A stretch of DNA of 64,000 bases from an uncultured Trueperaceae bacterium (GCA_963815215.1 CAWFFU010000003.1:832001-896000); one strand, 5' to 3'. Shown: positions 4,467-41,389, counted from the stretch's first letter. Program-made: numbers and translations. The notes: a model not told the origin generated them from the sequence alone.

Positions 4467-5681
4467 ATGAAGGTCTTCGTTCTCGGTGGTGACGGCTTCT
4501 GCGGCTGGCCCACCAGCCTACACCTCAGCAAACTCGGACACGACATCACCATCATCGACAACCTCAGCCGCCGCAACATCGACAACGAACTCGAAGCCGG
4601 CAGCCTCACCCCCATCCAACCCATGGGCACACGCCTGAAGGCCTGGCAACAGGTCAGCGGCAACACCATCGACTACGAACGCCTCGACATCGCCGACAAC
4701 TACCACCGGCTCCTCACCCTCATCCAAGACCAACGGCCCGACGCCATCATCCACTTCGCCGAACAACGCGCCGCGCCCTACAGCATGAAAAGCAGCTGGC
4801 ACAAGCGCTACACCGTCAACAACAACCTCAACGCCACCCACAACACCCTCGCCGCCATCGTCGAAGCCAACACCGACACCCACCTCATCCACCTCGGCAC
4901 CATGGGCGTCTACGGCTACGGCACCGCCGGCATGAAGATCCCCGAAGGCTACCTCCCCATCGAAGTCACCACCGACGAAGGCGACAAATCCACCAGGAGA
5001 TCCTCTACCCCCCCAACCCCGGCAGCATCTACCACCTCACCAAGACCCAGGACCAACTCTTCTTCGCCTACTACGCCAAGAACGACGGCCTACGCATCAC
5101 CGACCTCCACCAAGGCATCGTCTGGGGCACCAACACCCCCGACACCCTCCAAGACGAACGCCTCATCAACCGCTTCGACTACGACGGCGACTACGGCACC
5201 GTCCTCAACCGCTTCCTCATGCAAGCCGCCGTCAACTACCCCCTCACCGTCCACGGCACCGGCGGACAGACCCGCGCCTTCATCCACATCCGCGACACCG
5301 TCAGATGCCTCCAACTCGCCCTCGAGAACCCCCCCGACAAAGGCGAACGCGTCAAGATCCTCAACCAGATGACCGAAACCCACCGCGTCCGCGACCTCGC
5401 CCAACTCGTCGCCCAACAAACCGGCGCCACCATCGAGAACGTCCCCAACCCCCGCAAAGAAGACGCCGAGAACGACCTCCACGTCCACAACGACCTCTTC
5501 CTCGACCTCGGCCTCCAACCCACCACCCTCCAACAAGGCCTCCTCGAAGAAGTCACCACCATCGCCAAGAAATACGCGCCAGCGCGCCAACCTCGACAAG
5601 ATCCCCTGCACCAGCACCTGGACCCGCAACCAACACGCCGGAACACCCCACAGCACCAAGAAGACGCCAGAAACGGCGTAA
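4467..5681 (+). CDS. sqdB: UDP-sulfoquinovose synthase, interrupted by two frameshifts in this sequence
   Basis: GGAGG RBS, then MKVFVLGGDGFCGWPTSLHLS, HFAEQRAAPYSMKS, HLGTMGVYGY. After the shift at ~4988: ILYPPNPGSIYHLTK, TDLHQGIVWGT, NRFDYDGDYGTVLNRF, HGTGGQTRAFIHIRD. After the shift at ~5578: RANLDKIPCTSTW, TAA at 5679-5681. Confidence 0.9.
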
Positions 5682-5736
5682 GCCCCGACCACCGGAGGCA
5701 CCCGCCGGACGACCCCCGGCGCCCGCACCCCGCCCC

Positions 5737-6882
5737 ATGCGCATCGCCTTCTTCACGGAAACGTTCCTGCCCAAGATCGACGGGGTGGTCACCCGTCTCG
5801 TGCGCACGCTCGAGCAGCTCGGACAGCTGGGCCACGAGGCGCTGATCTTCGCGCCCCACAACCCTCCCGAGGCGTACGCGGGGCACCGGGTGGTGCGGGT
5901 GCCCGGCGTCCCCTTCAGGCCCTGGTACCCCGAGCTCTTCCTGGGACTGCCCCGACCGCGCCTGGGCCGGGAGCTCGACCGATTCCAGCCCGACATCGTC
6001 CACGTCATCAACCCGGTTGTGCTCGGCCTGTGGGGTACCGCCATCGCCAAGCAGCGCAACCTGCCGCTGCTCGCCAGTTACCACACCGACATCACCCAGT
6101 ACGCCGAGGCGCTGCGACTCCGCTTCCTATCCGAACCGTCGCGCATCTTCCTTCGCGACGTCCACAACCAGGCCCACGTCAACCTGTGCACGAGCGGACC
6201 CATGGTCAACTCGGCGCGCGGCCTGGGCATCCGGCGCGTGCGGCTGTGGCCCAAGGCGGTCGACACCGAGCTGTACCACCCGGGCAAGCGTTCCCACGCC
6301 ATGCGGGTTCGCCTCACCGACGGACACCCGGACGAACCGCTGATGGTCTACGTTGGCAGGCTGTCGTTCGAGAAGCGGCTCGACTGGCTGTACGCGCCGG
6401 TCACCCAACTCCCCAACGTGAGACTGGCTCTGGTCGGCTCGGGGCCGGCCGAGTCGGTCCTGCGCGAGCGTTTCAAGGGCACGCGCACGGTGTTCACCGG
6501 CTACATGTCGGGCACGGAGCTGGCGGCGGCGTACGCGACGGCCGACGTCTTCGCGTTCCCGTCGGACACGGAGACGCTCGGATTCGTCGCGATGGAGGCG
6601 ATGGCGTCCGGGGTGCCACCCGTGGGAGCCCGCGCCGGAGGCATCCCCGACGTGATCCGCGACGGGGATACCGGCCTGATGTTCACGCCCGGCGACCTAG
6701 GGGACCTCACCGAGAAGCTCGCCGTGCTGCTGACCGATCCCGCGCTGCGCGATCGCCTCGGTGCCGCAGCCCGCCGGGACATGGAGCGCTACGGCTGGCG
6801 GTCGGCCACCGAAGGCCTGGTTGACTTCTACCGGCTCGCAGTGCGGGTGCGCGACCGGTTCGACCCGCCCAGCGCCGCCTGA
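5737..6882 (+). CDS. sqdX: GT4 glycosyltransferase, SqdX-type sulfoquinovosyl transferase (sulfolipid synthase)
   Basis: MRIAFFTETFLPKIDGVVTRL, PDIVHVINP, ASYHT, HNQAHVNLCTS, YVGRLSFEK, FPSDTETLG..EAMASG. Lies directly after sqdB. Confidence 0.82.
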   Translation: MRIAFFTETFLPKIDGVVTRLVRTLEQLGQLGHEALIFAPHNPPEAYAGHRVVRVPGVPFRPWYPELFLGLPRPRLGRELDRFQPDIVHVINPVVLGLWGTAIAKQRNLPLLASYHTDITQYAEALRLRFLSEPSRIFLRDVHNQAHVNLCTSGPMVNSARGLGIRRVRLWPKAVDTELYHPGKRSHAMRVRLTDGHPDEPLMVYVGRLSFEKRLDWLYAPVTQLPNVRLALVGSGPAESVLRERFKGTRTVFTGYMSGTELAAAYATADVFAFPSDTETLGFVAMEAMASGVPPVGARAGGIPDVIRDGDTGLMFTPGDLGDLTEKLAVLLTDPALRDRLGAAARRDMERYGWRSATEGLVDFYRLAVRVRDRFDPPSAA

Positions 6883-6912
6883 ACCGGCACGCCGGTCCCG
6901 CGTCGCCTCCGA

Positions 6913-7704
6913 TCACGGGTCGGCCGCGCGCGCACCGTCCGGCAGGTGGGGCACCACCAGCGGGCGTGCCCCGATCGTGTGAACGTCGACACGGGTCCCG
7001 TAGACCCGGGACACGAGCGCCTCGGTGAGGACCTGCGAGGGGGTTCCCTGGGCCACGACGTGCCCCGCCTGCAGCACGACCAGACGGTCGCAGAAGCGGC
7101 TCGCAAGGTTGAGATCGTGGAGCACGACCAGGGCGCCGACGCCACGATCGACCTCCCGGCGCGTGTACTCGAGCATCTCCACCTGGTAGCGCAGATCGAG
7201 ATGGTTGGTCGGCTCGTCCAACAACAGGAAGCGCGGCCGCTGGGCGAGCGCCCGCGCCAGCACCACGCGCTGGCGTTCGCCGCCGGAGAGCCGCGTAGCG
7301 TCGCGGTCCGCCAGCGCGGCGGTGTCGGTGGCGCGCAGGGCCCGGTCGACGGCCCTCCGGTCCTCCGCGCGCTCCGGCCGCAGCAGCCCCAGGTGGGGCG
7401 TGCGCCCCATCGCCACCAGCTCGCGCACGCTGAAGCCGGCCGGGAGCTCCGGAAGTTGTGGGACCACAGCCAAGGATCGCGCCAGCTCCAGCCGCCCGAT
7501 CCGCGCGAGCGACCGGCCGTCGATCGTGACACTACCGGACCGCGGCGCCAACCGGCGTGTGAGCACGCGGACCAGCGTCGACTTGCCCGCTCCGTTCGGC
7601 CCGATGACGCCCAGTACCTCACCGGGCTCCACGCTCAGCTCGCAAGCGGCCAGCACGTCGCCTCTGCCGTACCCGGCGTAGAGCTCGCGGACCTCGATGC
7701 TCAC
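6913..7704 (-). CDS. Cobalamin/iron-chelate ABC transporter ATP-binding subunit (BtuD/FecE-like)
   Basis: GPNGAGKST, LSGGERQRVVLARALAQ, LLDEPTNHLD, VLHDLNLA. Confidence 0.92.
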   Translation of the reverse strand: MSIEVRELYAGYGRGDVLAACELSVEPGEVLGVIGPNGAGKSTLVRVLTRRLAPRSGSVTIDGRSLARIGRLELARSLAVVPQLPELPAGFSVRELVAMGRTPHLGLLRPERAEDRRAVDRALRATDTAALADRDATRLSGGERQRVVLARALAQRPRFLLLDEPTNHLDLRYQVEMLEYTRREVDRGVGALVVLHDLNLASRFCDRLVVLQAGHVVAQGTPSQVLTEALVSRVYGTRVDVHTIGARPLVVPHLPDGARAADP

Positions 7705-7711
7705 GGGAACC

Positions 7712-8749
7712 TCATCGGCTGCGCTGCCTTCGAAGCAGCAGCAGGAAGAAAGGGCCCCCCACCAAGGCCGTGACGATGCCGACGGGAAGCTCGGCGGGGG
7801 CCAGCACCGTACGCGCGAACAGGTCGGCGAGGACCAGGAACACCGCACCCCACAACGCCGACAGGGGTAGCAGGCGCACGTGGCGAGCCCCGAAGGCCAG
7901 TCGCACGGCGTGGGGGACCACCAGGCCCACGAAGCCGATCACGCCGGCCACGGCGACCGCTGCGGCCGTCGCCAGGGTGGCGGCGGTCAGCAGCGCCAGC
8001 CGGACCCGTTCGACCGGCACCCCGAGCTGGGCCGCGGACTCCTCGCCGAGTTGCATCACGTCGAGGGCACGGCCGGCGAGCAGGAGTGGAACGGTGGCCA
8101 CAACGAGCAGAGGCAGAACGCTCAGGACACGGTCCCAACTCGCGAAGGCGAAGCTGCCGAGCAGCCAGCTCAGGATCCCCGCGGCGCGATCCCGCGCGGC
8201 CAGCATCAGGAAGGAGGTGCCGGCGCTGAGGATCGAGCCGAGTACCACGCCCGCCAGGATGAGCGACACGGCGGGGAGCCCGCCGTCCCGGCGAGCCAGT
8301 ACCATCACCAGCACCACCGTCGCCAGGGCGCAGGCGAAGGCCGCGCCCGGCACACCCAGCCGCGTCAGCCAGGGTACGCTGCCCGCCAGCACCAACACGG
8401 CGCTCGCCCCGAACCCCGCCCCGCTGGCGGCCCCCAGCAGGTAGGGATCGGCCAGCGGATTGCGGAACACGCCTTGGAACGTCGCCCCGGCGAGCGCCAG
8501 AGCCGATCCCACCAGGGCGGCGAGCAGCACGCGCGGCAACCGGAGCTGCCACACGATCGTCTCCGTGGGGCCGTGCGCATGGCCCTGAACTCCGGCGACC
8601 ACCGCCGTCACCAGGGCGAGCGGCCGGATGGCGACGCTGCCGACCGACGTCGCCGCCACCAGGACGACGACCAGGGCGATCAGCGAGAGCACGACGGGCG
8701 CCATCCCCCTCCGTCGCGACTCCGCTTGGAACGACAGGACGCGCGCCAC
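7712..8749 (-). CDS. Cobalamin ABC transporter permease (BtuC/FecCD family)
   Basis: IVWQLRLPRV, QGVFRNPLADPYLLG, GVIGFVGLVVPH, ELPVGIVTALVGGPFF. Confidence 0.92.
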   Translation of the reverse strand: MARVLSFQAESRRRGMAPVVLSLIALVVVLVAATSVGSVAIRPLALVTAVVAGVQGHAHGPTETIVWQLRLPRVLLAALVGSALALAGATFQGVFRNPLADPYLLGAASGAGFGASAVLVLAGSVPWLTRLGVPGAAFACALATVVLVMVLARRDGGLPAVSLILAGVVLGSILSAGTSFLMLAARDRAAGILSWLLGSFAFASWDRVLSVLPLLVVATVPLLLAGRALDVMQLGEESAAQLGVPVERVRLALLTAATLATAAAVAVAGVIGFVGLVVPHAVRLAFGARHVRLLPLSALWGAVFLVLADLFARTVLAPAELPVGIVTALVGGPFFLLLLRRQRSR

Positions 8750-8752
8750 GGC

Positions 8753-9634
8753 TCAGAAGCGGCCCGGATGGAGGAGCCTGGCCAGCAGCGACACCGCGTC
8801 TCCCATGCGCGGCCCGGCACGACTGAGGAGGTCGACCTGGCGCAGGTCGAGCGCCACCACACGACCGCTCTTCACGGCGCTGAGCCCCGCCCATCCCGGC
8901 CGCGCCTCGGCAGCGGCGAGCGTCTCCCCGTACGGAGCGTCCATCAGCAACACGACCTGGGGGTCCTGCTGCACTACGAACTCAGGATCGACCTGAGGGT
9001 ACTGCCCCATCGACGGCCGCACGATGGTCCGGCCCCCGGCCTTGGCGAGCAGCGTCCCGAGGTACGAGGTCGGCCCCACGCTGTAAGGCGTGCCGTCGAG
9101 CTCGACGAAGACGCTCACGGTAGGGAGCCCGGCGACCTCGGAGGCGACCGCAGCCACCTGTCCCTCGATATGGCTGCGCACCGCGGCGGCCGCGGCCTGG
9201 CGGTCGAGCAGACGGCCCATCGCTTCCAGGAAGTCCAGCGCCTGAGAGTAGGTTTGCGGCGTCCCGGCGTAGACCGGGATTCCCAGCTTCCGAACCCGTT
9301 CCGCGAGCCCGCTGTACTCGTCGGTGAGGACCAGGTCGGGCTTCAACGCGACCAGCCGTTCCAGGTTCGGGTCATTGGCGTTGCCGAGCCGGGGCAGCGA
9401 TGCGACCGTCGCCGGCCAATCGCTGAGGGCGTCGACCCCGACCAGCCGGTCGCACGCGCCCAGCGCACACACCGTCTCGGTGTCGCTGGGGATCATCGAC
9501 ACGATCCGCTTCGGCGGGCCGGTCAACGTCAGCTTCGCGCCGAGCTGATCCCGGATCGTCAGGGGGTAGGCCGTCGCCAGCGCCGTCTGGAGCGCCAGCA
9601 GCAGGACCACGAGGAACGTCGAGCGCTTGACCAC
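8753..9634 (-). CDS. Cobalamin ABC transporter substrate-binding protein (BtuF-like)
   Basis: GAGGAGG RBS, signal peptide, YPLTIRD..G, PKRIVSMIPSDTETVCALG, ERLVALKPDLVL, RAGPR. Lies downstream of a B12 riboswitch. Confidence 0.88.
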   Translation of the reverse strand: MVKRSTFLVVLLLALQTALATAYPLTIRDQLGAKLTLTGPPKRIVSMIPSDTETVCALGACDRLVGVDALSDWPATVASLPRLGNANDPNLERLVALKPDLVLTDEYSGLAERVRKLGIPVYAGTPQTYSQALDFLEAMGRLLDRQAAAAAVRSHIEGQVAAVASEVAGLPTVSVFVELDGTPYSVGPTSYLGTLLAKAGGRTIVRPSMGQYPQVDPEFVVQQDPQVVLLMDAPYGETLAAAEARPGWAGLSAVKSGRVVALDLRQVDLLSRAGPRMGDAVSLLARLLHPGRF

Positions 9635-9661
9635 AAACGCCTCCTCAGCTCCTGCGATTGG

Positions 9662-9693
9662 AGAAAAAGAGATCCATCCCGGAGGGGATGGAT
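9662..9693 (-). terminator. Intrinsic terminator in the riboswitch expression platform
   Basis: 9-bp stem ATCCATCCC / GGGATGGAT followed on the minus strand by CTCTTTTTCT. Confidence 0.7.
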
Positions 9694-9749
9694 GCCGTTG
9701 GCCGCGATCGCGGCTTCCGGGCAGCCCTTCCTCGTCCTCGCAAGGGGGT

Positions 9750-9846
9750 GCTTCGTCGGGTCGCGGTATTCGGGCTACGGCCTCTCGGGACCTTACCGTT
9801 GCGGGACAGCGCCGGAATCGCACCGGACTTCCCCGTGAACCGACCC
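9750..9846 (-). ncRNA. Cobalamin riboswitch (compact form)
   Basis: Minus strand reads GGGAAGTCCGGTGCGATTCCGGCGCTGTCCCGCAACGGTAA...AGCCCGAATACC, upstream of a Btu-like ABC operon. Confidence 0.9.
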
Positions 9847-9850
9847 TCAA

Positions 9851-9879
9851 AGCGTACGACGCCCCCAGCGGGGTGTCAA
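9851..9879 (-). promoter_or_regulatory. Sigma70-type promoter of the B12 transporter operon
   Basis: TTGACA (9879-9874), 17-nt spacer, TACGCT (9856-9851), immediately upstream of the riboswitch. Confidence 0.75.
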
Positions 9880-9942
9880 ACGGTCGGAACCGTGCAGCGC
9901 GCGCTTCCGGCGGCGCCCTACGAGCGTGGTAGGCTCCCCGCT

Positions 9943-11007
9943 GTGACGCAGCTACGCTCCCTGTCGGAGCTCAACGTCCACGGGGCGGCGCGCGCCGATC
10001 GGCTGGTGCCTCCACCGCGCTTCGAGCGCGTCTCCTTCGAAGGGTATCGGCCCCAACACCCCAGCCAGGCGCTCGCGCGTGAACGGGCACGGGCCTTCGT
10101 CGAGGAGGCCGAGCGCGCCCTCAAGGCACCCCCACCCCGCCGCTTCCGGTTCCCCGGCCGTCGCCGTCCGTCACCCGGCCGCGGGCTCTACCTCGACGGC
10201 GGCTTCGGCGTCGGGAAGACCCACCTGCTGGCAGCCGCCTTCTTCCACGCGGATCTGGAGGCCAAGCACTACCTCAGCTTCCAGGAGCTCGTCTACCTCA
10301 TCGGGGTACTGGGCATGGAGCGGGCCCGCGCCGTCCTCGGTGGAGCGCGGCTGCTGTGCATCGACGAGTTCGAGCTCGACGACCCCGGCAACACGTTGAT
10401 CGTGAAGACCTTCCTGAACTCGGTGACGGAGGCCGGTGGCTACGTGCTCACCACCTCCAACACCGCGCCGGAAGCGCAGGGTCACGGGCGTTTCAACGCC
10501 GAGGACTTCCGGCGCGAGATCCAGTCCCTGGCCGACCACTTCGAGACGGTCACCATGGACGGCCCGGACTTCAGGCACCGGAGCCGCGTGGGCGTTCTGA
10601 CGCCGCGCCCCGAGTTCGAGCGGGCATGCCGTCAGGAGCGGGCCGAGGCGCCACGCGTGTTCAGCGAGTTCGACGCGCTGTTGCAGCTCCTCGCGGGCCT
10701 CCACCCTTCACGCTACGACGGGCTGCTGCGACAGGTGGGCACACTCTATCTGGCGGGCATCCGTCCTCTGGCCACCCAGAACGACGCCCTGCGCTTCGTG
10801 CACTTCGTGGACAAGCTCTACGACCTGGGGGTCGGGCTGCGGGCCACCGGCACCACCCCGCTCACCGAGCTGTTCGACGCCAGTTACCGCGACAGCGCTT
10901 ACGCCAAGAAGCACCTGCGCTGCCTGTCCCGTCTCAGCGAACTGCTGAGCGAGAGCCGGCAGGCCGGCGCGCCCGTCGAGCGCGCCGCGGTCGCCGCAGG
11001 CGGCTGA
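9943..11007 (+). CDS. zapE: Cell division ATPase ZapE (AFG1 family)
   Basis: GLYLDGGFGVGKTHLL, LLCIDEFELDDPG, TTSNT, ALRFVHFVDKLYD, RCLSRL. Confidence 0.85.
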   Translation: MTQLRSLSELNVHGAARADRLVPPPRFERVSFEGYRPQHPSQALARERARAFVEEAERALKAPPPRRFRFPGRRRPSPGRGLYLDGGFGVGKTHLLAAAFFHADLEAKHYLSFQELVYLIGVLGMERARAVLGGARLLCIDEFELDDPGNTLIVKTFLNSVTEAGGYVLTTSNTAPEAQGHGRFNAEDFRREIQSLADHFETVTMDGPDFRHRSRVGVLTPRPEFERACRQERAEAPRVFSEFDALLQLLAGLHPSRYDGLLRQVGTLYLAGIRPLATQNDALRFVHFVDKLYDLGVGLRATGTTPLTELFDASYRDSAYAKKHLRCLSRLSELLSESRQAGAPVERAAVAAGG

Positions 11008-11027
11008 CGACTCCGCTGGCCCGACCG

Positions 11028-12230
11028 TCAGGCAACCGGGTCGTACCCGCCTCGTAGAGCGGGCACGACCCGCGAGGCGCGTTCGAGCAAGTCGAGCGCG
11101 ATCGCTCGGCTGCCGCCGGGCGCCCCCATTCGCTGGCGGCCGATCCGACCCGCCCGGACCCTGGCCTCATCGTCACCTAGCAGCCCGCGGGCGGCCGCGG
11201 CGATGGCGCCTGGCTCGGGGTCGCTCAACGTGAGCGCTTCCCCCAGCAGACGCTTCTGGTTCAGGAGGAAGGCAAGTCCGTAGGAGGGCTCCAAGGGGAA
11301 GGACACCACCGGTACGCCGCGTGCCGCCGCCTGTTCGTTCGCGGTCCCTGCCGTACCGATGGCGATGCGGGCGCTGGCGAGCACGTCGCCGAAGCGCCCC
11401 TCCACAACCCACAGCCGGGTCGCGCCGCGCCGCAACGCCGCCACCCGTCCCGACACCGGCGCGGCTCCGCGGTCCTCCTCCCAGCCCGGCAACGCCGGCA
11501 ACGCTCCTCCGCTCCACGCCACCAGGCCCGTCACATCAGGGACGCTCGCCAGCGCCTCGGCCATGCGGGCCAGCGCGGTGGGCGTGTGGGCACGGGTACC
11601 GGGCAACAGGGCGACAGCGACGCGCCCGTCGATCCCTTCGAGCGCCCGCCCCTCGATCCGGTCCACCATCGGGTTGCCGAGCGCCAGCGCGTTGCGAACT
11701 CCGCGCGCTGTCAGCCAGGCGGCGGTCGCCTCGTCGCGCGCGTACACCACCGAGGCGAGGTGGCGCATCAGCACGCGCTCCGGGTAGCGGATGCGCTCCA
11801 TGAAGTAGCGGTTGGGCGGCGATCGTCCGGCGCCTGCGCTGTGGTGCGCGGATACGAGCGGCTGCACCACGGCGCGGAATCTCGAGCGCGTGAACGCCGC
11901 CAGCGCCTGGGCGTAGATGTCACCCACCACCACCACCACGTCGCTGCGCAACCGCGCCAGGGCGGCGAGCTGCGCCAGCGTCATGCCGACGAAACCGGCG
12001 CGGACGTCGGCAACGAGGCTCGCCGTCGAATGCAGGGTGAGTCCGCCGCTGGGCAACGCCCGACAGGGGCCGAGCCTGGAGATCGCCTCGGAACGGTAGG
12101 CCGACCCCTCGTCGACCACCGGGAAGGCACGGACCGTAGCGCCGGGCACCCGCTCCCGAAGGGCGCGCGCCAGCGACGCGCCGATGACGTCCTCGCCATG
12201 TCCGTTGGAGACGATCGTGATGCTCGGCAC
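11028..12230 (-). CDS. Lipid-A-disaccharide synthase-related (LpxB-like GT-B) protein
   Basis: N-terminal IVSNGHGEDVIG, LPSGG, VVVGDI, GNPMVD, LLPGTR, AGTANEQAA..GVPV, RMGAPGGS. Confidence 0.75.
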   Translation of the reverse strand: MPSITIVSNGHGEDVIGASLARALRERVPGATVRAFPVVDEGSAYRSEAISRLGPCRALPSGGLTLHSTASLVADVRAGFVGMTLAQLAALARLRSDVVVVVGDIYAQALAAFTRSRFRAVVQPLVSAHHSAGAGRSPPNRYFMERIRYPERVLMRHLASVVYARDEATAAWLTARGVRNALALGNPMVDRIEGRALEGIDGRVAVALLPGTRAHTPTALARMAEALASVPDVTGLVAWSGGALPALPGWEEDRGAAPVSGRVAALRRGATRLWVVEGRFGDVLASARIAIGTAGTANEQAAARGVPVVSFPLEPSYGLAFLLNQKRLLGEALTLSDPEPGAIAAAARGLLGDDEARVRAGRIGRQRMGAPGGSRAIALDLLERASRVVPALRGGYDPVA

Positions 12231-12268
12231 GCCCGACCTGCCGGAACGCCGCGCCCTGGAGCGCGGGC

Positions 12269-13165
12269 TCAGCCCTCCCGCATGCGGGGCGGAGCCCCCC
12301 AGCCGAGCTTGAAGCGCAGGATGTCGAAGAAGCTGTGCCGACCCGAGGACACCAGCATCAGATCGGTCGGCGCCGCCGCGATCGTGAAGCGGTCGCCCCG
12401 GCGAAGATCGATGCGTTCCTGCCCGTCGACCACCAAGGCCAGCTCGTGAACGTCGCTCTCCACTCGGAAGCTCACGAGCACGCCCCCCTCGACGACGATG
12501 GGCCTGTTGGTGAGCGAGTGGGGGGCCAGCGGAGTGATCACGAAGGCGCGCAGCGACTGGCTCACGATGGGACCGCCGAGCGACAGCGAATAGGCGGTGG
12601 AGCCGACCGGCGTGGACACCACCAGACCGTCGGCCCGGTACTGGATGGCGTGCGCGCCGTCCACTTCCATGGCGATGTTCACGAGGCGCGCCACCACCCC
12701 CTGCGAGACCACCACGTCGTTGAGGGCGAAGGTGGGCTCGCCGCCGCCGTTCAGCCACACCTGCAACATGATGCGCGGGTTGATGCGCCAGTCGTCCGGC
12801 GTGCGGCCCTCGAGGTACTCGCGGACCTCGTCGGCGCTGAACTCGGCCAGGAACCCGAGCTTGCCCAGGTTGACGCCGACCACCGGCGCGGCGGACCCCA
12901 CCAGACGCCGTGCGGCGCCGAGGAGGGTGCCGTCGCCACCCACGGAGAACACCACGTCGGCGTCGTGCGTGCGCTCCCCCAGCGGCATGGTCCCCTCGAG
13001 ATCGAGCTCTACGCTGGCCCCCAGCTCACGGAGTCGGTCCGTCAGCTCGCGGGCGAGCACGTGCGCTTCGGGCTTGTAACGGGTACTGGTCACGATCACC
13101 CGGCGCAGCCCGGCGGCCGGCGTGGTGAACGCCCTCCCGGCGGCGATCGACGGGCCGGAGCTCAA
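12269..13165 (-). CDS. nadK: NAD kinase
   Basis: VGGDGTLL, GVNLGKLGFL, ALND, ADGLVVSTPVGSTAYSLSLGGP, PLAPHSL.RP. Confidence 0.93.
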   Translation of the reverse strand: MSSGPSIAAGRAFTTPAAGLRRVIVTSTRYKPEAHVLARELTDRLRELGASVELDLEGTMPLGERTHDADVVFSVGGDGTLLGAARRLVGSAAPVVGVNLGKLGFLAEFSADEVREYLEGRTPDDWRINPRIMLQVWLNGGGEPTFALNDVVVSQGVVARLVNIAMEVDGAHAIQYRADGLVVSTPVGSTAYSLSLGGPIVSQSLRAFVITPLAPHSLTNRPIVVEGGVLVSFRVESDVHELALVVDGQERIDLRRGDRFTIAAAPTDLMLVSSGRHSFFDILRFKLGWGAPPRMREG

Positions 13166-15179: not shown

Positions 15180-15273
15180 CGTGCCGAAGGATACCACCGG
15201 CCCACCGTCCTTCGCGCCGTCGCTCCCTCCCACACGACGTCCGGCGGGCGTCAGCGAGGCTAATCTGGCAGGC

Positions 15274-15714: not shown

Positions 15715-15803
15715 CGAGCCGGCGCCCGGGTCTGCTAAAGTGGCTGGGCTTCGAGAGCGAACCCGAGCGCCCCTACGGGCCGGCGCCGGGCGGAGGACGA
15801 TCG

Positions 15804-16028: not shown

Positions 16029-16058
16029 CGGCGCGCATCGCCGGCAGGCTTCCTTCAT

Positions 16059-16082
16059 GCGGCCGCCCCCAGGGGCGGCCGC
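16059..16082. terminator. GC-rich hairpin between convergent rpmE and kinase genes
   Basis: GCGGCCGCCCC-CA-GGGGCGGCCGC inverted repeat. Confidence 0.6.
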
Positions 16083-29928: not shown

Positions 29929-29945
29929 GCCGGAGGGTCGGCTGA

Positions 29946-30584: not shown

Positions 30585-30588
30585 ACCC

Positions 30589-33430: not shown

Positions 33431-33463
33431 GCATTCCTCATTCGCCCGCGCTATCGTGGATGC

Positions 33464-34222
33464 GTGCTTCGGTTCGCACCCATCCTCGTCGTGTTGCTGC
33501 TGCCCCTGGCGCTGGCGCAAAGTGCGTTCAGCCAGATGCAGGACCTGCTCGACCGCGGGTACTACAACTCCGCGGCGCAACTCAACGGGCCGGAGCTCGT
33601 CAAGACGTACCCGGATCAGCCGAACGCGCACTATCTCTACGGCGAGGCGCTCTACCTGACGGGCAACGTGGCCGCCGCGCAGACGCAGCTCGACCTGGCA
33701 ACCAAGCTGACCCAGGGTGAGTCCGATCCCCGGTACCTGCACCTGGGCGGCCTGCTGAAGGCGGCCGAAGGCGACCCTGCCGCCGCCATCACGCCGCTGA
33801 AGACGGCGTTCCTGAGCACGCACGACTACGCCTACGCCATGGACTGGGGACGTGTCGCCTGGCAGGCGGGGTCCTTCGACGTGGCCCTGCAGGCGTTCCA
33901 AGCTGCGACCGGTACCGATGCCGGCAAGGCAACGATGTGGCCGCTGCTCGACCAAGGGCGCATCCTGATCTACCTGGGACGGTACCAGGATGCGATCCAG
34001 AAACTGAACGACGCCATCGACGTCTTCGAGGCGACCGACCCGGGCGGTGCGCGCCCCGGTTCGCCGGCCTACGTCGAAGCGTTCTACCGCCTCGGCCAGG
34101 TGTACGAGAAGCTCGGGAACGTCAGTCAGGCCGAGACCAACTACCGGTCAGCGCGTACCGCCGACCCCAACTATGCACCGGCGATCGACGCCCTCGACCG
34201 CCTGTCGCGCAGCTTCCCATAG
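33464..34222 (+). CDS. Secreted TPR-repeat protein
   Basis: Signal peptide (LALAQ). AHYLYGEALYLTG, AFYRLGQVYEKLG..A...YRSA..DP. TATCGT 6 nt before the GTG. Confidence 0.78.
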   Translation: MLRFAPILVVLLLPLALAQSAFSQMQDLLDRGYYNSAAQLNGPELVKTYPDQPNAHYLYGEALYLTGNVAAAQTQLDLATKLTQGESDPRYLHLGGLLKAAEGDPAAAITPLKTAFLSTHDYAYAMDWGRVAWQAGSFDVALQAFQAATGTDAGKATMWPLLDQGRILIYLGRYQDAIQKLNDAIDVFEATDPGGARPGSPAYVEAFYRLGQVYEKLGNVSQAETNYRSARTADPNYAPAIDALDRLSRSFP

Positions 34223-34296
34223 CGCGACCCCACGGTTCCAGCCGGCCTGTCCCCCTCGACGTTCGAGGGATGCGGCAACCGGCGAAGGGAGGTCCC

Positions 34297-34998
34297 ATGT
34301 CGACCCTCAAAGCCCAAACCCTCCATCCTTCGGCCTGCGAACCCGCGGCTCCGGTTCCCGAAACGCTGGCCCTGCCGACGCGTACGTTGGAGCCTGGGCA
34401 GGTGTTGTTCGAGGCGGATCGTGAGGCGAGCAACCTGTACGTGGTGAACTTCGGGGTGCTGAAGGCGGTGGTGCCGACCAGTCTGGGTCGGGATCGTATC
34501 GCCGATCTGTACGGCGCCGGGGACGTGCTCGGTTTGAGCGCGTTGGACGGCGGTCTGCACGCCGAGACGGTGATCGCGGTGCACGATGCGTGCCTCACCC
34601 CGATCGATCCGAAGCAGGCGATGAACGATCGCAGCTTGCGTGATTACGTGCTGCGCAGCCTGGCGCGGCAGTTGCGGCGTTCCCGCGAGATGCTGGACGA
34701 AGCCGAGATGCCGGTCGGTGCGCGCGTCACCCGCGCGTTCCTGCGCTTGGCGCGGCAGTTCGGGCAGCCCAGCGACGGGGCGTCGTCGGCGGACGGCATC
34801 GAGGGCGGCGTGAAGCTGCCGCTGGCGTTGACGCATGAGGATCTGGCGGATCTCACCGGCTCGAGCCGGGTGACCATCACCCGCATCCTCGGCGAGCTGC
34901 GGTCCGACGGCGCTCTGGAGGGCACCCGCGGCGTGTACGTCGCCAACCTCGAGGGGTTGGAGCGCGCCACCGATCACTACGTCATGCAGGTGCTCTGA
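34297..34998 (+). CDS. Crp/Fnr family transcriptional regulator
   Basis: GGAGG RBS. cNMP-like domain (PGQVLF, LYVV..GVLK, GAGDVLG) and HTH LTHEDLADLTGSSRVTITRILGEL. Confidence 0.88.
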   Translation: MSTLKAQTLHPSACEPAAPVPETLALPTRTLEPGQVLFEADREASNLYVVNFGVLKAVVPTSLGRDRIADLYGAGDVLGLSALDGGLHAETVIAVHDACLTPIDPKQAMNDRSLRDYVLRSLARQLRRSREMLDEAEMPVGARVTRAFLRLARQFGQPSDGASSADGIEGGVKLPLALTHEDLADLTGSSRVTITRILGELRSDGALEGTRGVYVANLEGLERATDHYVMQVL

Positions 34999-35025
34999 CC
35001 CAGCGCCCGCTATCCCGCTCGCTCT

Positions 35026-35058
35026 GCACCGCCCCGGCCACGAAGGCCGGGGCGGTGC
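35026..35058. terminator. Hairpin between convergent genes
   Basis: GCACCGCCCCGGCC-ACGAA-GGCCGGGGCGGTGC, 14-bp stem. Confidence 0.7.
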
Positions 35059-35097
35059 TCGTTGGGACCGGCCGCCGCGACGGGGCCACGGCGAAGC

Positions 35098-35832
35098 TCA
35101 GTGGATGGCGTAGCGCACGTCCACGGCCGCCCACACCGCAAGCTGCCCGGCCTGCACGGGAGAGCCCGCACCCACACGCACCGCGGCCATGGTGCCCGCC
35201 GGCGACGCGACCGGCGAGGACGACTCATCGATCGTGAGCGGCCTGCCCAGCGTCACTCCGGCCAGATCCGCCAGTTGCTGGGCCTTCGCTCGAGCATCGT
35301 GCATCGCTGCGGCGCGGGCCTTCGCCTGAAGCGCCCCCGGATCGGCGATGCTGAACTGGATGCCCTGCACGTCGTTGGCACCGGCGTTCACGGCGGCGGA
35401 CACCAGCTCGCCGAGCTTCGTGAGATCGCGCAGCGTGACCTGGTAGCTCTGGACCACCTGATAGTGCTCGCCGGTCACGCTCCCATTCCGGTCGCGGACC
35501 TCCTGACGGCGGACGTTGAACGCTACCGTGCGGATGTCCCGGGCCTCGACGCCGCCGTCGAGGAAGGCCTGACGCACCGCCCGCATGGACCGGTCGGCAC
35601 TGGCGAGGGCGTCGCCGACCTGCTGCGCCGTCACATCGACCCCCAGCGTCAGCAGAGCGATGTCGGGCGCCCCGTAGACGGTGGCGCTCCCGTGCACCTG
35701 GATGCCGGACGACGGCTGGGATTGCGACTGGGATTGCGCCAGCGCCGGCGCCGAGACGAGGAACGTCGCCAGGACGGCGCATGCGAAGGCGGCACGAACG
35801 AACGCGCGGGGGGTCACGGGCACAGACTGCAT
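35098..35832 (-). CDS. SIMPL / DUF541 periplasmic protein
   Basis: Signal peptide, IQVHGSATV..APDIA.LTLGV, AGAN.V.GI.F, AM.DARAKA..LA..AGV.LG. Confidence 0.85.
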   Translation of the reverse strand: MQSVPVTPRAFVRAAFACAVLATFLVSAPALAQSQSQSQPSSGIQVHGSATVYGAPDIALLTLGVDVTAQQVGDALASADRSMRAVRQAFLDGGVEARDIRTVAFNVRRQEVRDRNGSVTGEHYQVVQSYQVTLRDLTKLGELVSAAVNAGANDVQGIQFSIADPGALQAKARAAAMHDARAKAQQLADLAGVTLGRPLTIDESSSPVASPAGTMAAVRVGAGSPVQAGQLAVWAAVDVRYAIH

Positions 35833-35943
35833 GGTGCGGGCCTCCTTGGGACGACCGTTCCGGGAGCCGGTCCTACCCCTCGACCCCCGCATCGTCGATG
35901 CTCCATCCTCGCGCACGATCATGACCTGCCGATGGGAGCCGGC

Positions 35944-37188
35944 TCAGTTGACGGTCTTGATGCGACGGTTCTGGAAGTCCTGCAGAACGTAGCGACCGAT
36001 GGTGTGGGGGGTCGTGAAGTAGGCCTTCCCGCGCGTCATCGCGGAGACCCGCTGCACGAAGGCGATCAGCTCGGGGTCCCGCGCCAGCATGAAGGTGTTG
36101 ACCTGGATGCCCTGCCGCCGACAGTTGCCTACCTCACGCAGCGTCTCGCCGAGCACCATGGGGTCGAGCCCGTAGGCGTTCTTGTAGACACGGCCGCCCG
36201 GTAGCGTGATGGCCGACGGCTTGCCGTCGGTGATCATCACGATCTGCTTCATGTCCTTGTTCTGGCTCCGAAGGATCTTGCGCGCCAACCGCAACCCCTC
36301 TGCCGTATTGGTGTGGTACGGACCCACCTGGGCCGACGCCAGCTTCGTCAACGGGATCTCCTCGGCCGAGTTGTGGAACAGCACGAAGCGGATGGTGTCG
36401 CCTCGGTACTGCGTACGGATCAGGTGCGCCAGCGCCAGCGCGACCTGCTTCGCAGGGGTGAAGCGGTCCTCGCCGTAGAGGATCATCGAGTGCGAGCAGT
36501 CGAGCATCACGACCGTCGCCGCCGACGAGGCGTACTCGGCCTGCACCACCTGGAGATCGTCGTACTCGAGGTCGAACCGTCCGCCGTCGAAGCCGCGCCG
36601 CGCGGCGTTCTTGAACGTCTCCGCCACGTCGAGGTTGAGCGTGTCGCCGTACTCGTAGGGCTTCGACTCGCCGTTCGTCTCCACGCCGGTGCTCTGGAAG
36701 CGCGTCTCGTGCGCCCCCACGCTCGAACGTCCGGCGCCGCCCAGCACATCGCGCAGGGTGCGGTAGCCGAGGAAGTCGATGGCCTTGTCGGTGAGCTCGA
36801 AGCGCGCCGCGCCCGGGTCGCCTTCCGGGCCGGAACCCTGGCCCCCGCTGCGTGGCTCGTCCTCGTCGTCAGGGGCGGCCTTCAGATAGCCTTCCCGCTC
36901 GAGCCGCTGCGCCAGCTCCTTGACCATCTCGCCGAGCTGCGACGTCATCCAGTCGTCGGCGTTCATGGCCTTCTCGAGGGTCTCCTCGGACACCAGGTCG
37001 TTGTTGATCAGAGCCTCGGCGATGGCGTCGTAGAGGTCCTGCAGGGACTGACGATAGTCCGGATCGGGATCCCACGGGTTGCGCCCGAAGCCCGACTCGA
37101 GCAGCCGGTCCTGCAACATCTTCATCAGGTCCGCCATGTCGAGATCGTCGAGCGTCGGCTCGTACTTGGAATAGCGGGTCGTCGCCAC
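35944..37188 (-). CDS. VWA (MIDAS) domain protein
   Basis: [31 protein letters not shown]. Adjacent to a BchI-like ATPase. Confidence 0.85.
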
Positions 37189-37236
37189 CTCGGCGCCTCC
37201 TCATCGTGCACGCCCGTGCCGGAAAGGAACGAACGC

Positions 37237-38682
37237 TCAGTTCCACCGCCGGCGAGGGCCGGCCTGAGCCGCCTCCGCGGACTCGGGCTGCACGCCGGTG
37301 AAGCCGCGTTCCTCGCTGCGCGCCACCAGCTTGCGGGCATACAGGCCCTCGAGCACGAACTCGGCGGCGACGGCGAGGTCGGCCGCGGAGGTCCCGTCGG
37401 CGAGCTCACGGGCCGCGTCGAGCAGCCCGGGCACCGTCTCGAAGACCTGGACCAGCGCTCCGGTGGCGACGTGGTCAGGCAGGCGCAAGGTGTTGTCCGA
37501 GTCGAAGTACTCGATCACCTCGCCGGTCTCCACCTGGCCGGCGCGACGCGCGAACACCTGGCCCACGGCGCGGCGCACCAGGTCACGCGCCACGGCCTCC
37601 CCGCCCTTGAGCTCGCCCTCGTACTCGAGCTCGAGCTTGCCCGTCACCGCCGCCAGCCCGGCATACAGGTCGGACGCGCGGACGTAGGCCGGGCTCTCCT
37701 CGAGCTCTAGCGCACGCCGCTCGGCGTTGCTCACCACGGCCTCCATGAGGCTGATGGGCAGGCGTTGGGAGACGCCCGAGTGCTTGTCCACACGGGCGTC
37801 GTCGCGGGCCTGGAACGCGACCTCCTCGATCATCTCCGACACGAAGCCGGGCAGGCGCACCTCGCCGCCGCGCTCGATCCAGGCCTCCTGTCGCGTGATG
37901 GCCATGCCCTCCTCGACGGTGGGCGGGTAGTGGGTGCGGATCTCTGAGCCGATGCGGTCCTTCAGGGGGGTGATGATCTTGCCACGCGCCGTGTAGTCCT
38001 CGGGATTGGCGCTGAAGACCAGCATGATGTCGAGCGGCAGGCGGATGGGGTGCCCCTTGATCTGCACGTCCCCCTCCTGCATGACGTTGAAGAGCGCGAC
38101 CTGCACCTTGCCGGACAGGTCGGGCAACTCGTTCATGGCGAACAGGCCGCGGTTGGCGCGCGGCAGCAGCCCGTAGTGCACCGAGCGCTCGTCGCCCAGC
38201 CGGGTGCCGAGCTTGGCCGCCTTGATGGGGTCGATGTCGCCCACGATGTCGGCCACCGTAACGTCGGGCGTGGCGAGCTTCTCGATGTAGCGGGCCTCAC
38301 GCGGTAACCACGCGATCGGGGTGGAGTCGCCGCAGCGCTCCACGATCTCGCGACCCTCCACGCTGACGGGGGCGAAGGGGTCGTCATGGAGCTCGGAGCC
38401 CTCGACCACGGGGATCTCCTCGTCAAGGAGGTCGCTGAGCTGCCGCAGGAGGCGCGTCTTGGCCTGACCGCGAAGCCCGAGAAGGATGAAGTTGTGGCGG
38501 CTGAGGATGGCGTTGACGATCTGCGGGATGACCGATTCGTCGTAGCCGCGGATGCCCGAGAAGATCGGGGCGCGGTCACGCAGCTTGCGAATCAGGTTGT
38601 CGCGGAGCTCCGCCTTGACGCCGCGGCCCGCCTTGGCCGACCACGCCGTGGCGCGCAGCTCCCCGAGGGTGGTGGGCTTCAT
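37237..38682 (-). CDS. Mg-chelatase subunit I-like AAA+ ATPase
   Basis: [70 protein letters not shown]. Confidence 0.85.
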
Positions 38683-38840
38683 CCGTTCCTCCGGCTCTGC
38701 GTCGAGCTTCCCAGCGGGTTCATGGGCCATGCTAGCACCAGCCCTCCGGATCGCTGTGTGTGCCCGGTAGCGGTCGCCTACGTGCCCTGGGCACGAGCCG
38801 GCCCGGCCCGCCGACCCCGGGACGCTTGCCCCGGACGACG

Positions 38841-38866
38841 TCCCACAAATGAATCCCACAAATGAA
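38841..38866. repeat. Perfect 13-bp tandem direct repeat (TCCCACAAATGAA x2)
   Basis: Read directly at 38841-38853 and 38854-38866. Confidence 0.9.
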
Positions 38867-38953
38867 GGTGACCCTGCGTGGGGGGCGCAGGGTCAAAGAG
38901 AGGAGATGGTGGAGGGACGAATCCCTCACGGGTCCCGCTGGGGGAGCGGAACC
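38860..38953 (-). ncRNA. Candidate small RNA (three hairpins, C-rich loops, anti-SD-like linker)
   Basis: TAGAAT -10 at 38965-38960. Hairpins at 38953-38931, 38929-38909 (UUCG loop) and 38895-38869. Linker CAUCUCCUCUCUU. Confidence 0.5.
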
Positions 38954-39018
38954 AAGGCGATTCTACAACAGAATGCTGACGGGCGTCTTACTTCAGGGGA
39001 CCCCTGGTATCGTCCGCC

Positions 39019-40293
39019 ATGACCGTCCTCCGCACCGCCGAAGTGCTCGCCGTGGGCACCGAGCTCCTGCTCGGCGAGATCGACGACACCAACAGCGCCG
39101 AGCTCGCCCGGAGCCTGGCGCAGCACGGCGTCGACGTCTACTGGACTCAGCGCCTCGGCGACAACCTCGAGCGCCTTCGCGCCGCCATCGATCGCGCCCT
39201 CGAGCGCAGCGACCTGGTCGTCCTCACGGGCGGGCTGGGTCCCACCGACGACGACCTCACGCGCGACGCCGTCGCCCTGGCGGCCGGCGAGGCCATGACA
39301 CTCGACCCGGAGCTGGAGCGCTGGCTGCGCCAACGCTTCGCTTCGCGCCGTCGGCCCATGCCCGAGCGCAACCTGCGCCAGGCCATGCGCATCCCGTCGG
39401 CGCGGGCGCTGGACAACCCCATCGGGACGGCACCCGGTTGGCTGGTGACACTGTGGCGCGCCGGTGACGAGCGGACGGTGGTGACCCTTCCCGGGCCACC
39501 GCGCGAGATGCGCCGCATGTGGCAGTCCGAGGCCCTGCCGCGCCTGACGTTCGCGGCCAGCGCTCTGTACACCCGCACCATCAAGACCCATGGCGTGGGC
39601 GAGTCCGACGTGGCCGAGCGGCTAGGGGAGTTGACGCGGGGCGCCAACCCCAGCGTGGCGACCTACGCCAAGCGTGACGGCGTCCACGTACGGGTGGCCG
39701 CCAAGGGCACCAGCGCCGAAGAGGCCCGCCGTCGGGCCGCTCCGACCGAACGGGAGGCGCTCACACGGCTCGGCGACAGCGTCTGGGGCTTCGACGACGA
39801 CGCCTTGCCCGTCATGGCGATCGAGCGCCTGCGCGCCTCTGGCCTGCGCCTGGCGTTGGCCGAGTGCGCCAGCGGCGGATCCCTGTCCGAGCTGCTGAGC
39901 GGCGTCCCCGCCGTCGAAGAGGCGCTCGCGGGCGCCGTGATAGCATGGAACGCGGATAGCATGGCAACGCTCGGAGTGGCCACAGATCTGTTGGCAAGGC
40001 TTCCCGCCGCAGCCGCGGAGGTGGTTGCGGCGCTGGCGGTAAGCGTCCGTGCGCTATTCAATGTCGACTATTCGATCGCCGTCGGTCCCGCCCTGCTGCT
40101 GCAGGACGGCGATCCCGGCGACGCATCGCGACCGGATGGGAACGAAAGCGCGGCAACGCGTGTGGTGATCGCCGTCGCCGGACCGAACGGCACGACCGTC
40201 GATACGTTGACCTTCCCGCCACTCGGGCGGGCGTGGCTCCGCGAGCGGCTCGCCTTCACCAGCCTCTTCCTTCTCCGGTCCGCCCTGAGGTAG
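39019..40293 (+). CDS. cinA: Competence/damage-inducible protein CinA (C-terminal PncC domain degenerate)
   Basis: [60 protein letters not shown]. Upstream of recA. Confidence 0.92.
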
Positions 40294-40345
40294 CGGCGGG
40301 CGCGCTCCGGTGCGCCCGTACGCCGTCGGAGAGGTGGAGCGAGCT

Positions 40346-41389
40346 GTGATAGACGAGCAGCGTAGGAAGGCCCTGGATACTGCTATCTCGCAGATCGAGC
40401 GTCAGTTTGGTAAGGGCGCGGTGATGCGTTTGGGGGAGGAGCAGGTTCGGTTGTTGGGGGCGGGTGTGATTTCGACGGGGTCGTTGTCGGTGGATCTGGC
40501 GTTGGGGGTGGGGGGTGTGCCTCGGGGTCGGGTGGTGGAGGTGTATGGGCCTGAGGCTGGGGGGAAGACGACGTTGGCGTTGCATGTGGTGGCGGAGGCG
40601 CAGGCGGCGGGGGGTGTGGCGGCGTTCGTGGATGCGGAGCATGCGTTGGATCCGTCGTATGCGCGGGCGTTGGGGGTGGATATCGAGCAGTTGTTGGTGA
40701 GCCAGCCGGATTCGGGGGAGCAGGCGTTGGAGATCGTGGAGTTGTTGGTGCGGTCGGGCGCGGTGGATGTGGTGGTGATCGATAGTGTGGCGGCGTTGAC
40801 GCCGCGCGCGGAGCTCGAGGGTGAGATGGGGGACGCGCATGTGGGGTTGCAGGCGCGGTTGATGAGTCAGGCGTTGCGGAAGTTGACGGCGGTGTTGTCG
40901 AAGAGTCGGTCGACGGCGATTTTCATCAATCAGGTGCGGGAGAAGATCGGGGTGTTGTACGGCAATCCGGAGGTGACGCCGGGGGGGCGGGCGTTGAAGT
41001 TCTATGCGAGTGTGCGTATGGAGGTGCGGCGTAAGGGGGATGTGAAGGTGGGCGCGGAGAAGGTGGGGAACCGCGTGCGGGTGAAGGTGACGAAGAACAA
41101 GGTGGCGCCGCCTTTTCGGGAGGCGGAGGTGGAGATCATGTTCGGTCGGGGGATCGATCGGGTGGGGGATCTGGTGAATGTGGCGAGTGATGTGGAGGTG
41201 GTGCAGAAGTCGGGGTCGTGGTACTCGTTCGGGGAGACGCGGTTGGGGCAGGGCAAGGAGAAGACGGTTGAGTTCCTGAGCCAGAACCCGGACGTCCTCA
41301 AGGACATCCGAGAACGCGTCATGGATGAGCTGAAACGAGGCGGCCGCGCTCCCGGCGCCGGCCCCTCAGGCGAGGACGGTGAAGCGTGA
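40346..41389 (+). CDS. recA: Recombinase RecA
   Basis: [99 protein letters not shown]. Confidence 0.98.

Follow-up and report, generated by a model that had tools for sequence, protein, structure and literature searches.

The stretch of DNA analysed here, called the window below, is 64,000 nucleotides long (G000:C3:832001-896000) and comes from the assembled genome of a Trueperaceae bacterium from soil and salt marsh. This source genome, G000, has 3.32 Mb in 14 contigs and 70% G+C, and its closest named relatives are Trueperaceae metagenome-assembled genomes with a RecA identity of 80-81%. Two genes on the + strand, about 36 kb apart, are the subject of this report: sqdB, whose coding strand is rich in A and C, and recA, whose coding strand is rich in G and T. 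A first-pass annotation, made from the sequence alone, had pointed to this pair, and translations and domain matches place both genes as it described. The tracts are compared throughout with GRINS, an unexplained recoding, described in 2021, that speeds gene conversion in antibiotic-synthesis genes (PMC8256042). The features of the locus are as follows.

4467..5681, + strand: sqdB (UDP-sulfoquinovose synthase) coding region (three-frame translation; NCBIfam NF041015; Pfam Epimerase)
4500..5740: single-copy skew tract of sqdB, + (coding) strand A/C-rich, - strand G/T-rich (skew scans)
40346..41389, + strand: recA copy 1, in a conserved cinA-recA-rny context (translation; Pfam RecA, 448 bits, and RecA_C)
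40352..41299, no strand assigned: recA gene-conversion tract, 100% identical to recA copy 2 at G000:C8:78351-79333 (- strand)
40385..41250: GRINS-type skew tract of recA, + (coding) strand G/T-rich (skew scans; within the published GRINS thresholds)
5737..6882, + strand: GT4 glycosyltransferase, the sqdX-like neighbour at the 3' edge of the sqdB tract (Pfam Glycos_transf_1, Glyco_transf_4)
39019..40293, + strand: cinA, upstream neighbour of recA (Pfam MoCF_biosynth, CinA_KH, CinA)
41386..43056, + strand: rny (RNase Y), downstream neighbour of recA (Pfam RNase_Y_N, KH_1, HD)

Keto skew, defined as ((G+T)-(A+C))/n and taken in 600-nt windows, was -0.40 to -0.42 across 4501-5700 in sqdB and +0.35 to +0.39 across 40201-41100 in recA, and mostly inside +/-0.1 in the remainder of the window. 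With 150-nt windows, the mean GC and TA skews were -0.41 and -0.42 in sqdB (4500-5740) and +0.51 and +0.20 in recA (40400-41270); the mean |GC skew| of the rest of the window was 0.077 (n=2048). Both tracts are extreme outliers in the genome as a whole, more than 5 standard deviations out in a scan of 66,231 windows of 400 nt (standard deviation 0.075; 0.01 and 99.99 percentiles -0.45 and +0.38); the asymmetry described in the first-pass annotation is confirmed. The edges are sharp, each lying within about 40-60 nt (4480 to 4520, 5720 to 5740, 40360 to 40400 and 41220 to 41260). The earlier description of the tracts as roughly gene-sized can be refined: the sqdB skew extends about 57 nt beyond the stop codon, across a 55-nt spacer up to the start of the next gene, and the recA skew stops about 140 nt before the stop codon. 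Four-fold sites in the flanking genes are ordinary, as had been claimed, with C at 0.45-0.56 and G at 0.32-0.42 (glycosyltransferase, C 0.45 and G 0.41; cinA, 0.54 and 0.32; rny, 0.56 and 0.33). G+C in the tracts is 0.62-0.67, compared with 0.70, and six-base palindromes are scarce, as also anticipated, at 10.5 and 16.1 per kb compared with 24.0.

The recA tract coincides with a tract of gene conversion. The two recA copies align by blastn over 983 nt at 99.39% identity, and base-by-base alignment gives 948 bp (40352-41299) at 100%; similarity with a few mismatches reaches 41331, and outside the gene the two regions are unrelated. The skew tract is nested within the stretch of complete identity. 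The two tuf genes of this genome (C3:568988-570211 and C3:825731-826954) are likewise 100% identical exactly over their skewed stretch, with third-position frequencies of G 0.67, T 0.31, C 0.03 and A 0.00 (about 0.67, 0.30, 0.03 and 0.00 across the genus). The recA paralogs are identical within G000, within its congener G003 (943 bp) and within G012, a member of the same family, and the G000 and G003 orthologs are only 95.1% identical; this combination indicates concerted evolution of recA. The skew itself is inherited. All eight genus genomes with a usable recA have a recA keto skew of 0.30-0.36; two other genera have 0.25-0.27, and the rest of the order is near 0.

GRINS were defined as regions of more than 500 bp, with more than 80% identity to another region and a mean |GC skew| and |TA skew| above 0.15 in 150-nt windows moved by 30 nt (PMC8256042). 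Three pairs in this genome fall within that definition: recA, tuf and a pair of NHL-like repeat genes. For recA the values were 980 bp, 99.5% identity, a mean |GC skew| of 0.50 and a mean |TA skew| of 0.21. The recA pair also has the secondary traits of GRINS, concentration of the skew at third positions (keto skew 0.28, 0.04 and 0.67 by codon position) and a shift in amino acids (Gly+Val+Cys+Trp 0.256, compared with 0.187-0.217 in six unskewed relatives). The published genome survey spanned five phyla, Deinococcota not included, and its main text is without mention of tuf, recA, Deinococcus or Thermus (PMC8256042). The class is extended here to a further phylum and to core genes. A literature search on tuf gene conversion or strand asymmetry and on recA duplication in Trueperaceae found no description of this case.

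Other tracts of the genome, found by the genome-wide keto scan unless noted, are these.

Contig C8: recA copy 2, skewed
Contig C12: pseudaminic-acid cluster (PseF, PseG/H, NeuB-like), a single-copy skew tract covering four pse genes
Contig C11: open reading frame of 392 amino acids, a single-copy skew tract, with no family matches in profile searches
C3:631398-632930 with C4:141093-142623: the NHL-like repeat gene pair, with weaker skew, identified by the GRINS definition

A further candidate, C14:80651-81750, was dropped as a polarity tract, being a proline-rich open reading frame of low complexity with adjoining tracts of both signs; the proline-rich frame is followed by a G/T-rich stretch, beside a tRNA-like region near the contig end (L006 1758-2600). 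A search for a periodic G/T pattern in four genomes gave thousands of matches, including codon periodicity and low-complexity repeats, and was unusable for finding more tracts.

Several other observations concern the surroundings. Some 3.5 kb separate the second recA copy (C8:78351-79333, L139) from a paralog of the sqdX-like glycosyltransferase (C8:74734-74854, 76% identical to window 5735-5855), and the neighbourhood of this recA recurs in G003:C2 and G004:C19; this neighbourhood may be the remnant of a segmental duplication. In the window, 7800-8700, within an open reading frame at 7880-9838, has a weaker, A-rich asymmetry (AT skew 0.45-0.48, keto skew -0.15 to -0.16). Positions 34365-35082, within the gene for a Crp/Fnr-type regulator (33937-34998), form another recently converted or duplicated tract, 718 bp long and 99.9% identical to G000:C10:264291-265008, with skews (GC +0.11, TA +0.10) below the GRINS thresholds.

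The sqdB tract differs from recA and tuf in copy number. The first-pass annotation had listed gene conversion between copies among the candidate routes for both of its tracts, an explanation that fits recA and is not supported for sqdB. No second sqdB was found in the 14-contig assembly, which is 97% complete and whose contigs have no depth information, so that a collapsed copy would not show; the only other match to the region, 121 nt at 76%, belongs to the next gene. Relatives with sqdB have a single match of sqdB length each. The tract has the skew of GRINS (|GC| 0.41, |TA| 0.42) and lacks a region of more than 500 bp and 80% identity elsewhere in the genome. It fits the GRINS authors' remark on skew present in only one copy, rather than their definition; single-copy skew regions were thus also noticed by them (PMC8256042). 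In the middle 193 codons of sqdB the four-fold sites are C at 96 and A at 2. The sqdB skew is -0.38 to -0.41 in six of eight genus genomes and -0.22 and -0.25 in the other two, and it is weaker outside the genus.

In this assembly sqdB is read in frame 1, then in frame 3 from about 4988, and in frame 1 again from about 5577, with two compensating breaks near 4988 and at 5576-5578. Because the gene is split, NF041015 matches its two pieces separately, with 162.5 and 164.9 bits where a full-length match needs 575. Of the 13 other loci with both the N- and the M-part, 12 keep the two in a single frame, and the lone exception, in G005, bears a different break. Contigs from public sequencing runs of four studies (X1, X2, X7 and X8) have an extra base after 4988 in all four runs, and those covering the second place are without one base at 5576 or 5578 in three of three. 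We read these breaks as assembly errors or a strain-specific lesion, outside the skew phenomenon. Frame breaks cluster within the skew tracts of several assemblies with few contigs (window ~4988/5577; L005 943-2412, NeuB-like; the tuf copies of G003; sqdB of G005). Their probable source is indel error at homopolymers, in runs rich in C or G, and skew tracts may be systematically mis-annotated as pseudogenes.

Gene conversion by itself does not produce the skew, contrary to one suggestion of the first-pass annotation. In G012 the two recA copies are identical over 972 bp and the two tuf genes are identical as well, yet their skews are 0.03 and -0.05; these pairs, converted and unskewed, show that conversion is insufficient. 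Across the order, seven tuf pairs were compared; every one is 99.8-100% identical, and their third-position skews range from -0.47 to +0.95. Among genomes of the order, the tuf third-position keto skew is +0.65 in G025 and -0.47 in G020. Gene conversion is necessary at most, not sufficient.

The sign of the skew follows replication in nearly every case. GC skew on contig C3 is positive over roughly the first 330 kb and negative over the whole remainder beyond about 480 kb, with the cumulative maximum, and hence the terminus, at 330-480 kb; dnaA lies on contig C9, at the place where the skew of C9 flips. From the layout on C3 the window lies within one replichore, with its + strand lagging, and from the positions of the terminus and dnaA no origin or terminus falls between sqdB and recA. 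Of the 9 tract copies, 8 have their G/T-rich side on the leading strand, as assigned from contig GC skew. The lone exception is the recA of the window, whose partner on C8 is concordant; counted by locus, five are concordant and one is split. A sign test on moderate windows (|keto| 0.22-0.30) was discarded as evidence of polarity, since a small shift of the background alone biases the tails.

The kind of base change was established by polarising substitutions at sites where seven unskewed outgroups agree on the base. The states in G000 were as follows.

recA, four-fold sites with outgroup C (37 sites): G 30, T 4, C 3
recA, two-fold sites with outgroup C (24 sites): T 17, C 6, G 1
sqdB, four-fold sites with outgroup G (28 sites): C 27, A 1
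sqdB, two-fold and other sites with outgroup G (17 sites): A 8, G 8, C 1

Wherever the code permits, then, the changes are transversions that preserve G+C. These results bear on the best surviving of the alternatives, strand-specific mutation on repeatedly exposed single-stranded DNA, whether by deamination or by the tautomer-driven transitions of an error-prone polymerase proposed by Nivina et al., which we nevertheless consider unlikely. It would account for the axis of the skew, G with T and C with A, which matches both deaminations; for the G/T-rich leading-strand sequence in 8 of 9 copies, which is the polarity expected of an exposed lagging-strand template; and for the change of C to T at 17 of 24 two-fold pyrimidine sites in recA. 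A two-step route, C to T and then T to G under GC pressure, is compatible with the equilibrium composition. Deamination had been put forward in the first-pass annotation as the driver, but the excess of C to T and A to G that it should leave on the G/T-rich strand is missing at four-fold sites, where recA has 30 changes of C to G against 4 of C to T, and sqdB has 27 of G to C against 1 of G to A. The intermediate sqdB alleles of G009 and G001 are also informative: their four-fold sites have C 72-79 and G 15-21, compared with C 55-61 and G 40-46 in the outgroups, and at two-fold purine sites they retain G in 26-29 of 28-30 cases. In sqdB the four-fold step from G to C therefore came before the two-fold step from G to A, the opposite of the order expected if G to A were the driver. 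Finally, four-fold distances corrected for composition in tuf and recA are 0.22-0.42 of those in flanking genes; they are not raised, which is the opposite of what local hypermutation predicts. Four-fold divergence in sqdB was 0.021 and 0.054, compared with 0.34-0.51 in its flanks; an interpretation of these values as constraint was rejected, as they lie at the saturation expected from 98% C (b = 0.039-0.059).

A second alternative is selection on the message or its translation, through a special codon set for particular tRNAs or an unstructured mRNA in a few important genes. The effect is indeed strongest at third positions (+0.95 in tuf, +0.67 in recA), tuf and recA are highly expressed or stress genes, and strands without complementary bases cannot fold, which agrees with the reduced palindromes. 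Several observations make this very improbable. Nearby genes that are highly expressed, fusA, rplC and nusG, have no skew. By the wobble rules one tRNA serves both NNC and NNT, yet endings in C are purged, and the retained G and T endings are not read by one class of tRNA. First positions and amino acids are shifted as well: the first-position keto skew of recA is 0.28, compared with about 0.0-0.1; its leucine codons are TTG 23 and CTG 5, compared with 1 and 21 in an unskewed relative; and Ile is 0.037 and Val 0.135, compared with 0.058-0.071 and 0.082-0.107 in six unskewed relatives. The move of Leu from CTG to TTG, together with the fall of Ile and the rise of Val, indicates a pressure that purges A and C (or G and T) from a strand while keeping G+C, without a transition bias. 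Skew also crosses the spacer after sqdB and spans the four pse genes, its polarity follows the direction of replication and not of transcription, and published GRINS are located in polyketide synthase genes. The pressure is on nucleotides, not codons.

A local exaggeration of the ordinary replication skew without recombination, for example at sites of fork pausing or head-on transcription, comes next in rank and is given little chance. The sign is normal in 8 of 9 copies, the leading strand being G/T-rich, and the lagging strand is the coding strand of sqdB, the pse cluster, the C11 gene and the NHL-like pair. Replication skew has one sign per replichore, however, and the recA of the window is opposite in sign to sqdB on the same replichore, 36 kb away, as the first-pass annotation had correctly argued; moreover, the skew is about ten times the background and confined to genes, and the edges in recA and tuf coincide with the edges of paralog identity inside the genes. 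Foreign DNA from a donor of extreme bias, or a chimeric assembly, is hardly credible: lower G+C in the tracts and the frame breaks within sqdB and the NeuB-like tract might suggest it, but every genus genome with the gene also has the tract, eight of them within an unchanged gene context, and the tracts recur in contigs of 4 runs from 4 studies. Their junctions lie inside genes and keep the reading frame, identities among sqdB sequences form a hierarchical matrix, and the skew is graded among relatives.

The reading that we favour, by a modest degree, is that both tracts are recoded in the manner of GRINS, that the recA tract is kept identical by ongoing conversion, and that the recoding arises from a strand-polar bias in fixation, of which the mismatch endonuclease NucS (EndoMS), the sole mismatch-repair enzyme detected in the genus, is the likeliest agent. 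Single-stranded DNA from a slightly different copy, which could be a paralog, another copy of the chromosome or DNA taken up from outside, would pair with a resident strand. Changes that place G or T on the incoming strand would be rejected, and those that place A or C would pass, NucS recognising only G-T, G-G and T-T mismatches. The resident exposed strand, normally the lagging-strand template with the leading-strand sequence, would then drift to G and T; site by site, the lagging-sense strand would be driven to A/C and the leading-sense strand to G/T, with transversions included. Given this specificity, changes from amino to keto bases are blocked on the incoming strand and those from keto to amino bases pass, so that the predicted polarity is the one observed. 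What the analysis shows is the tracts, their overlap with conversion tracts, their inheritance, the types of substitution, the polarity and the link with NucS-only genomes; that NucS filtering of heteroduplexes causes the skew is inferred, as is the reason why single-copy genes such as sqdB are hit. For these genes our guess is that sqdB, the pse cluster and the C11 gene became skewed as single copies through frequent exchange of surface-sugar genes between strains.

The properties reported for NucS are consistent with this proposal. EndoMS/NucS cleaves G/T, G/G and T/T mismatches and not C/A (PMC6159521). In Mycobacterium smegmatis, oligonucleotides annealing to the lagging-strand template were rejected when they formed G-G or G-T mismatches and accepted when they formed C-C, A-A, A-C, C-A, G-A or A-G mismatches, with a repair patch of about 5-6 bp (PMC11551744), and loss of nucS increases homeologous recombination (PMC5290159). 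In polyploid Haloferax, deletion of nucS severely impairs conversion among chromosome copies (PMC11276520). A survey gives bacterial NucS as found only in Actinobacteria and Deinococcus-Thermus, with MutS-MutL almost always absent and NucS present in Actinobacteria (PMC5290159), the phylum in which GRINS are commonest among polyketide synthase clusters (PMC8256042). A literature search found no paper connecting NucS with GRINS.

The NucS prediction was recorded before mismatch-repair genes were surveyed. The NucS of G000 is full-length (235 bits; cut-off 216), and profile searches gave no match to MutS_I or MutL_C in any of the 10 genus genomes. In the family, sampled as 71 genomes of 36 genera including one unpublished genome (G161), NucS was present in 41 and MutS_I in 28, almost exclusively of each other, with both in three and neither in five. 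Third-position keto skew of tuf was measured in 38 family genomes, drawn from the 71 and from earlier relatives, with a full-length match required; the partial tuf genes of G150 and G094 are in the table of skews and not in the tree described below. Twelve of the 14 NucS-only genomes exceeded 0.5 and none of the 24 others did, distributed as follows.

NucS only: 14 genomes (10 genera), 12 above 0.5; genus means 0.35-0.97
MutS only: 20 genomes (12 genera), 0 above 0.5; genus means -0.24 to +0.44
Both systems: 2 genomes, 0 above 0.5; 0.17 and 0.46
Neither system: 3 genomes, 0 above 0.5; -0.06 to +0.04

On gene content, NucS appears to have replaced MutSL in Trueperaceae, which would add another bacterial lineage to Actinobacteria in this respect. 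In a phylum-wide NucS sample of 121 genomes, two genera with MutS and MutL predominated, and for Deinococcus-Thermus a 2017 survey gives only co-occurrence of NucS and MutSL, in 7 species (PMC5290159). Two genomes of genus g12 in the same order, G020 and G028, which are 99-100% complete, gave no match to NucS_C, MutS_I or MutL_C; they may be without recognisable mismatch repair or have divergent proteins.

Two observations on the family assemblies belong beside this survey. In many draft genomes contigs end inside recA and tuf, with N- or C-terminal fragments at the contig ends, and a search at E <= 1e-60 missed tuf in 30 of the 71 genomes, mostly NucS-only drafts. Identical repeats of odd composition seem to escape assembly or binning.

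A number of points weigh against the NucS proposal. On an EF-Tu protein tree, itself built from the skewed gene, the NucS-only label requires only 4 changes, and there are only 3-4 independent pairs, of which 1-2 go the predicted way, none the opposite way, and 1-2 are tied; this is not significant, and with so few independent pairs the raw table overstates the evidence. NucS-only G011 and G080 are weakly skewed (+0.35 and +0.31). Outside the family, G025 has MutS and MutL, its best NucS_C match being 20.5 bits, and has an island-like tuf skew of +0.65; G027, with NucS, MutS and MutL, has -0.30, and G024, with both systems, has +0.57. From these exceptions NucS cannot be the only route to a skewed tuf, and there may be contributions from other asymmetries of mismatch repair; C-C mismatches are poorly handled by MutS.

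The mechanism itself meets further difficulties. Since the two recA copies are oppositely oriented, they should cancel the bias if they were equally often recipients, and an asymmetry between them must be assumed. The sqdB gene is single-copy, with no pairing partner found in the assembly, and the model leaves unaccounted for why sqdB and not its neighbours is skewed; its low four-fold divergence, at the saturation expected from composition, is uninformative. Reduced synonymous rates are also usual in highly expressed genes such as tuf. Single published GRINS elements can have positive and negative skews on the same strand (PMC8256042), an arrangement not expected if polarity came from replication alone. 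NucS is thus a lead that can be tested, and its causal role is undemonstrated. Its wider form, that GRINS in general are the footprint of strand-polar, keto/amino-biased gene conversion by NucS/EndoMS in NucS-only lineages (Actinobacteria and a block of Trueperaceae without MutS and MutL), is put forward only tentatively, as something that may well prove wrong.

The locus is a natural, inherited case of the little-understood GRINS recoding that is linked to gene copying. It shows recoding of this type acting on the core genes tuf and recA in an unrelated phylum and persisting over long evolutionary time. The authors of the GRINS study regarded the mechanism as unknown and proposed deamination or tautomer-driven transitions (PMC8256042), which do not fit the base changes seen here. 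Trueperaceae offers a natural comparison, in which sister genera convert identical pairs, skewed or not, and differ in their mismatch-repair system; with it the cause of GRINS becomes testable, centred on the mismatch specificity of NucS. If true, the wider NucS proposal would explain the pairing of G with T, the transversions between G and C, the polarity, and the abundance of GRINS in Streptomyces. In practical terms, such tracts break short-read assemblies, gather indel errors in long-read ones, and distort codon-based and dN/dS analyses of marker genes.

Among known systems, the closest likeness is to the GRINS of Nivina et al. (2021): both are duplicated coding tracts of more than 500 bp and more than 80% identity whose GC and TA skews are intense, agree in sign and are strongest at third positions, tied to gene conversion and without an explained cause, and in both Gly- and Val-type residues rise in positive tracts and Pro, Thr, His and Gln in negative ones. 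Unlike published GRINS, the tracts described here occupy duplicated core housekeeping genes (tuf, recA) as well as sugar and lipid genes present in one copy, in a family of Deinococcota, are stable across divergence from genus to family where published GRINS are recent, and have a polarity that follows the leading strand in 8 of 9 copies; their changes are mainly transversions between G and C, in contrast to the transition-based proposals of the GRINS authors. Duplicated tuf genes elsewhere, reportedly including tufA and tufB of Salmonella, evolve in concert by gene conversion, and here too the copies are identical within a genome while orthologs diverge. In the lineages examined here conversion is found in all and skew only in some, and to our knowledge the classical cases of concerted tuf evolution have not been described as strand-skewed.

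The skews of replicating chromosomes and of the heavy and light strands of mitochondrial DNA extend over whole replichores or genomes and are attributed to deamination. As in replication GC and TA skew and in vertebrate mitochondrial DNA, G is paired here with T, and the leading (exposed) strand is usually the G/T-rich one; unlike them, the tracts are gene-sized, have about ten times the local background, include one copy of opposite sign, and consist mostly of transversions. The substrate range of NucS/EndoMS takes in G-T, G-G and T-T and leaves out A-C, C-C and A-A, which is exactly the keto/amino axis of the present skews, transversions included. The enzyme is described as acting on single strands annealed at the lagging-strand template and as restraining homeologous recombination; a part for it in biased gene conversion is the proposal of this analysis.

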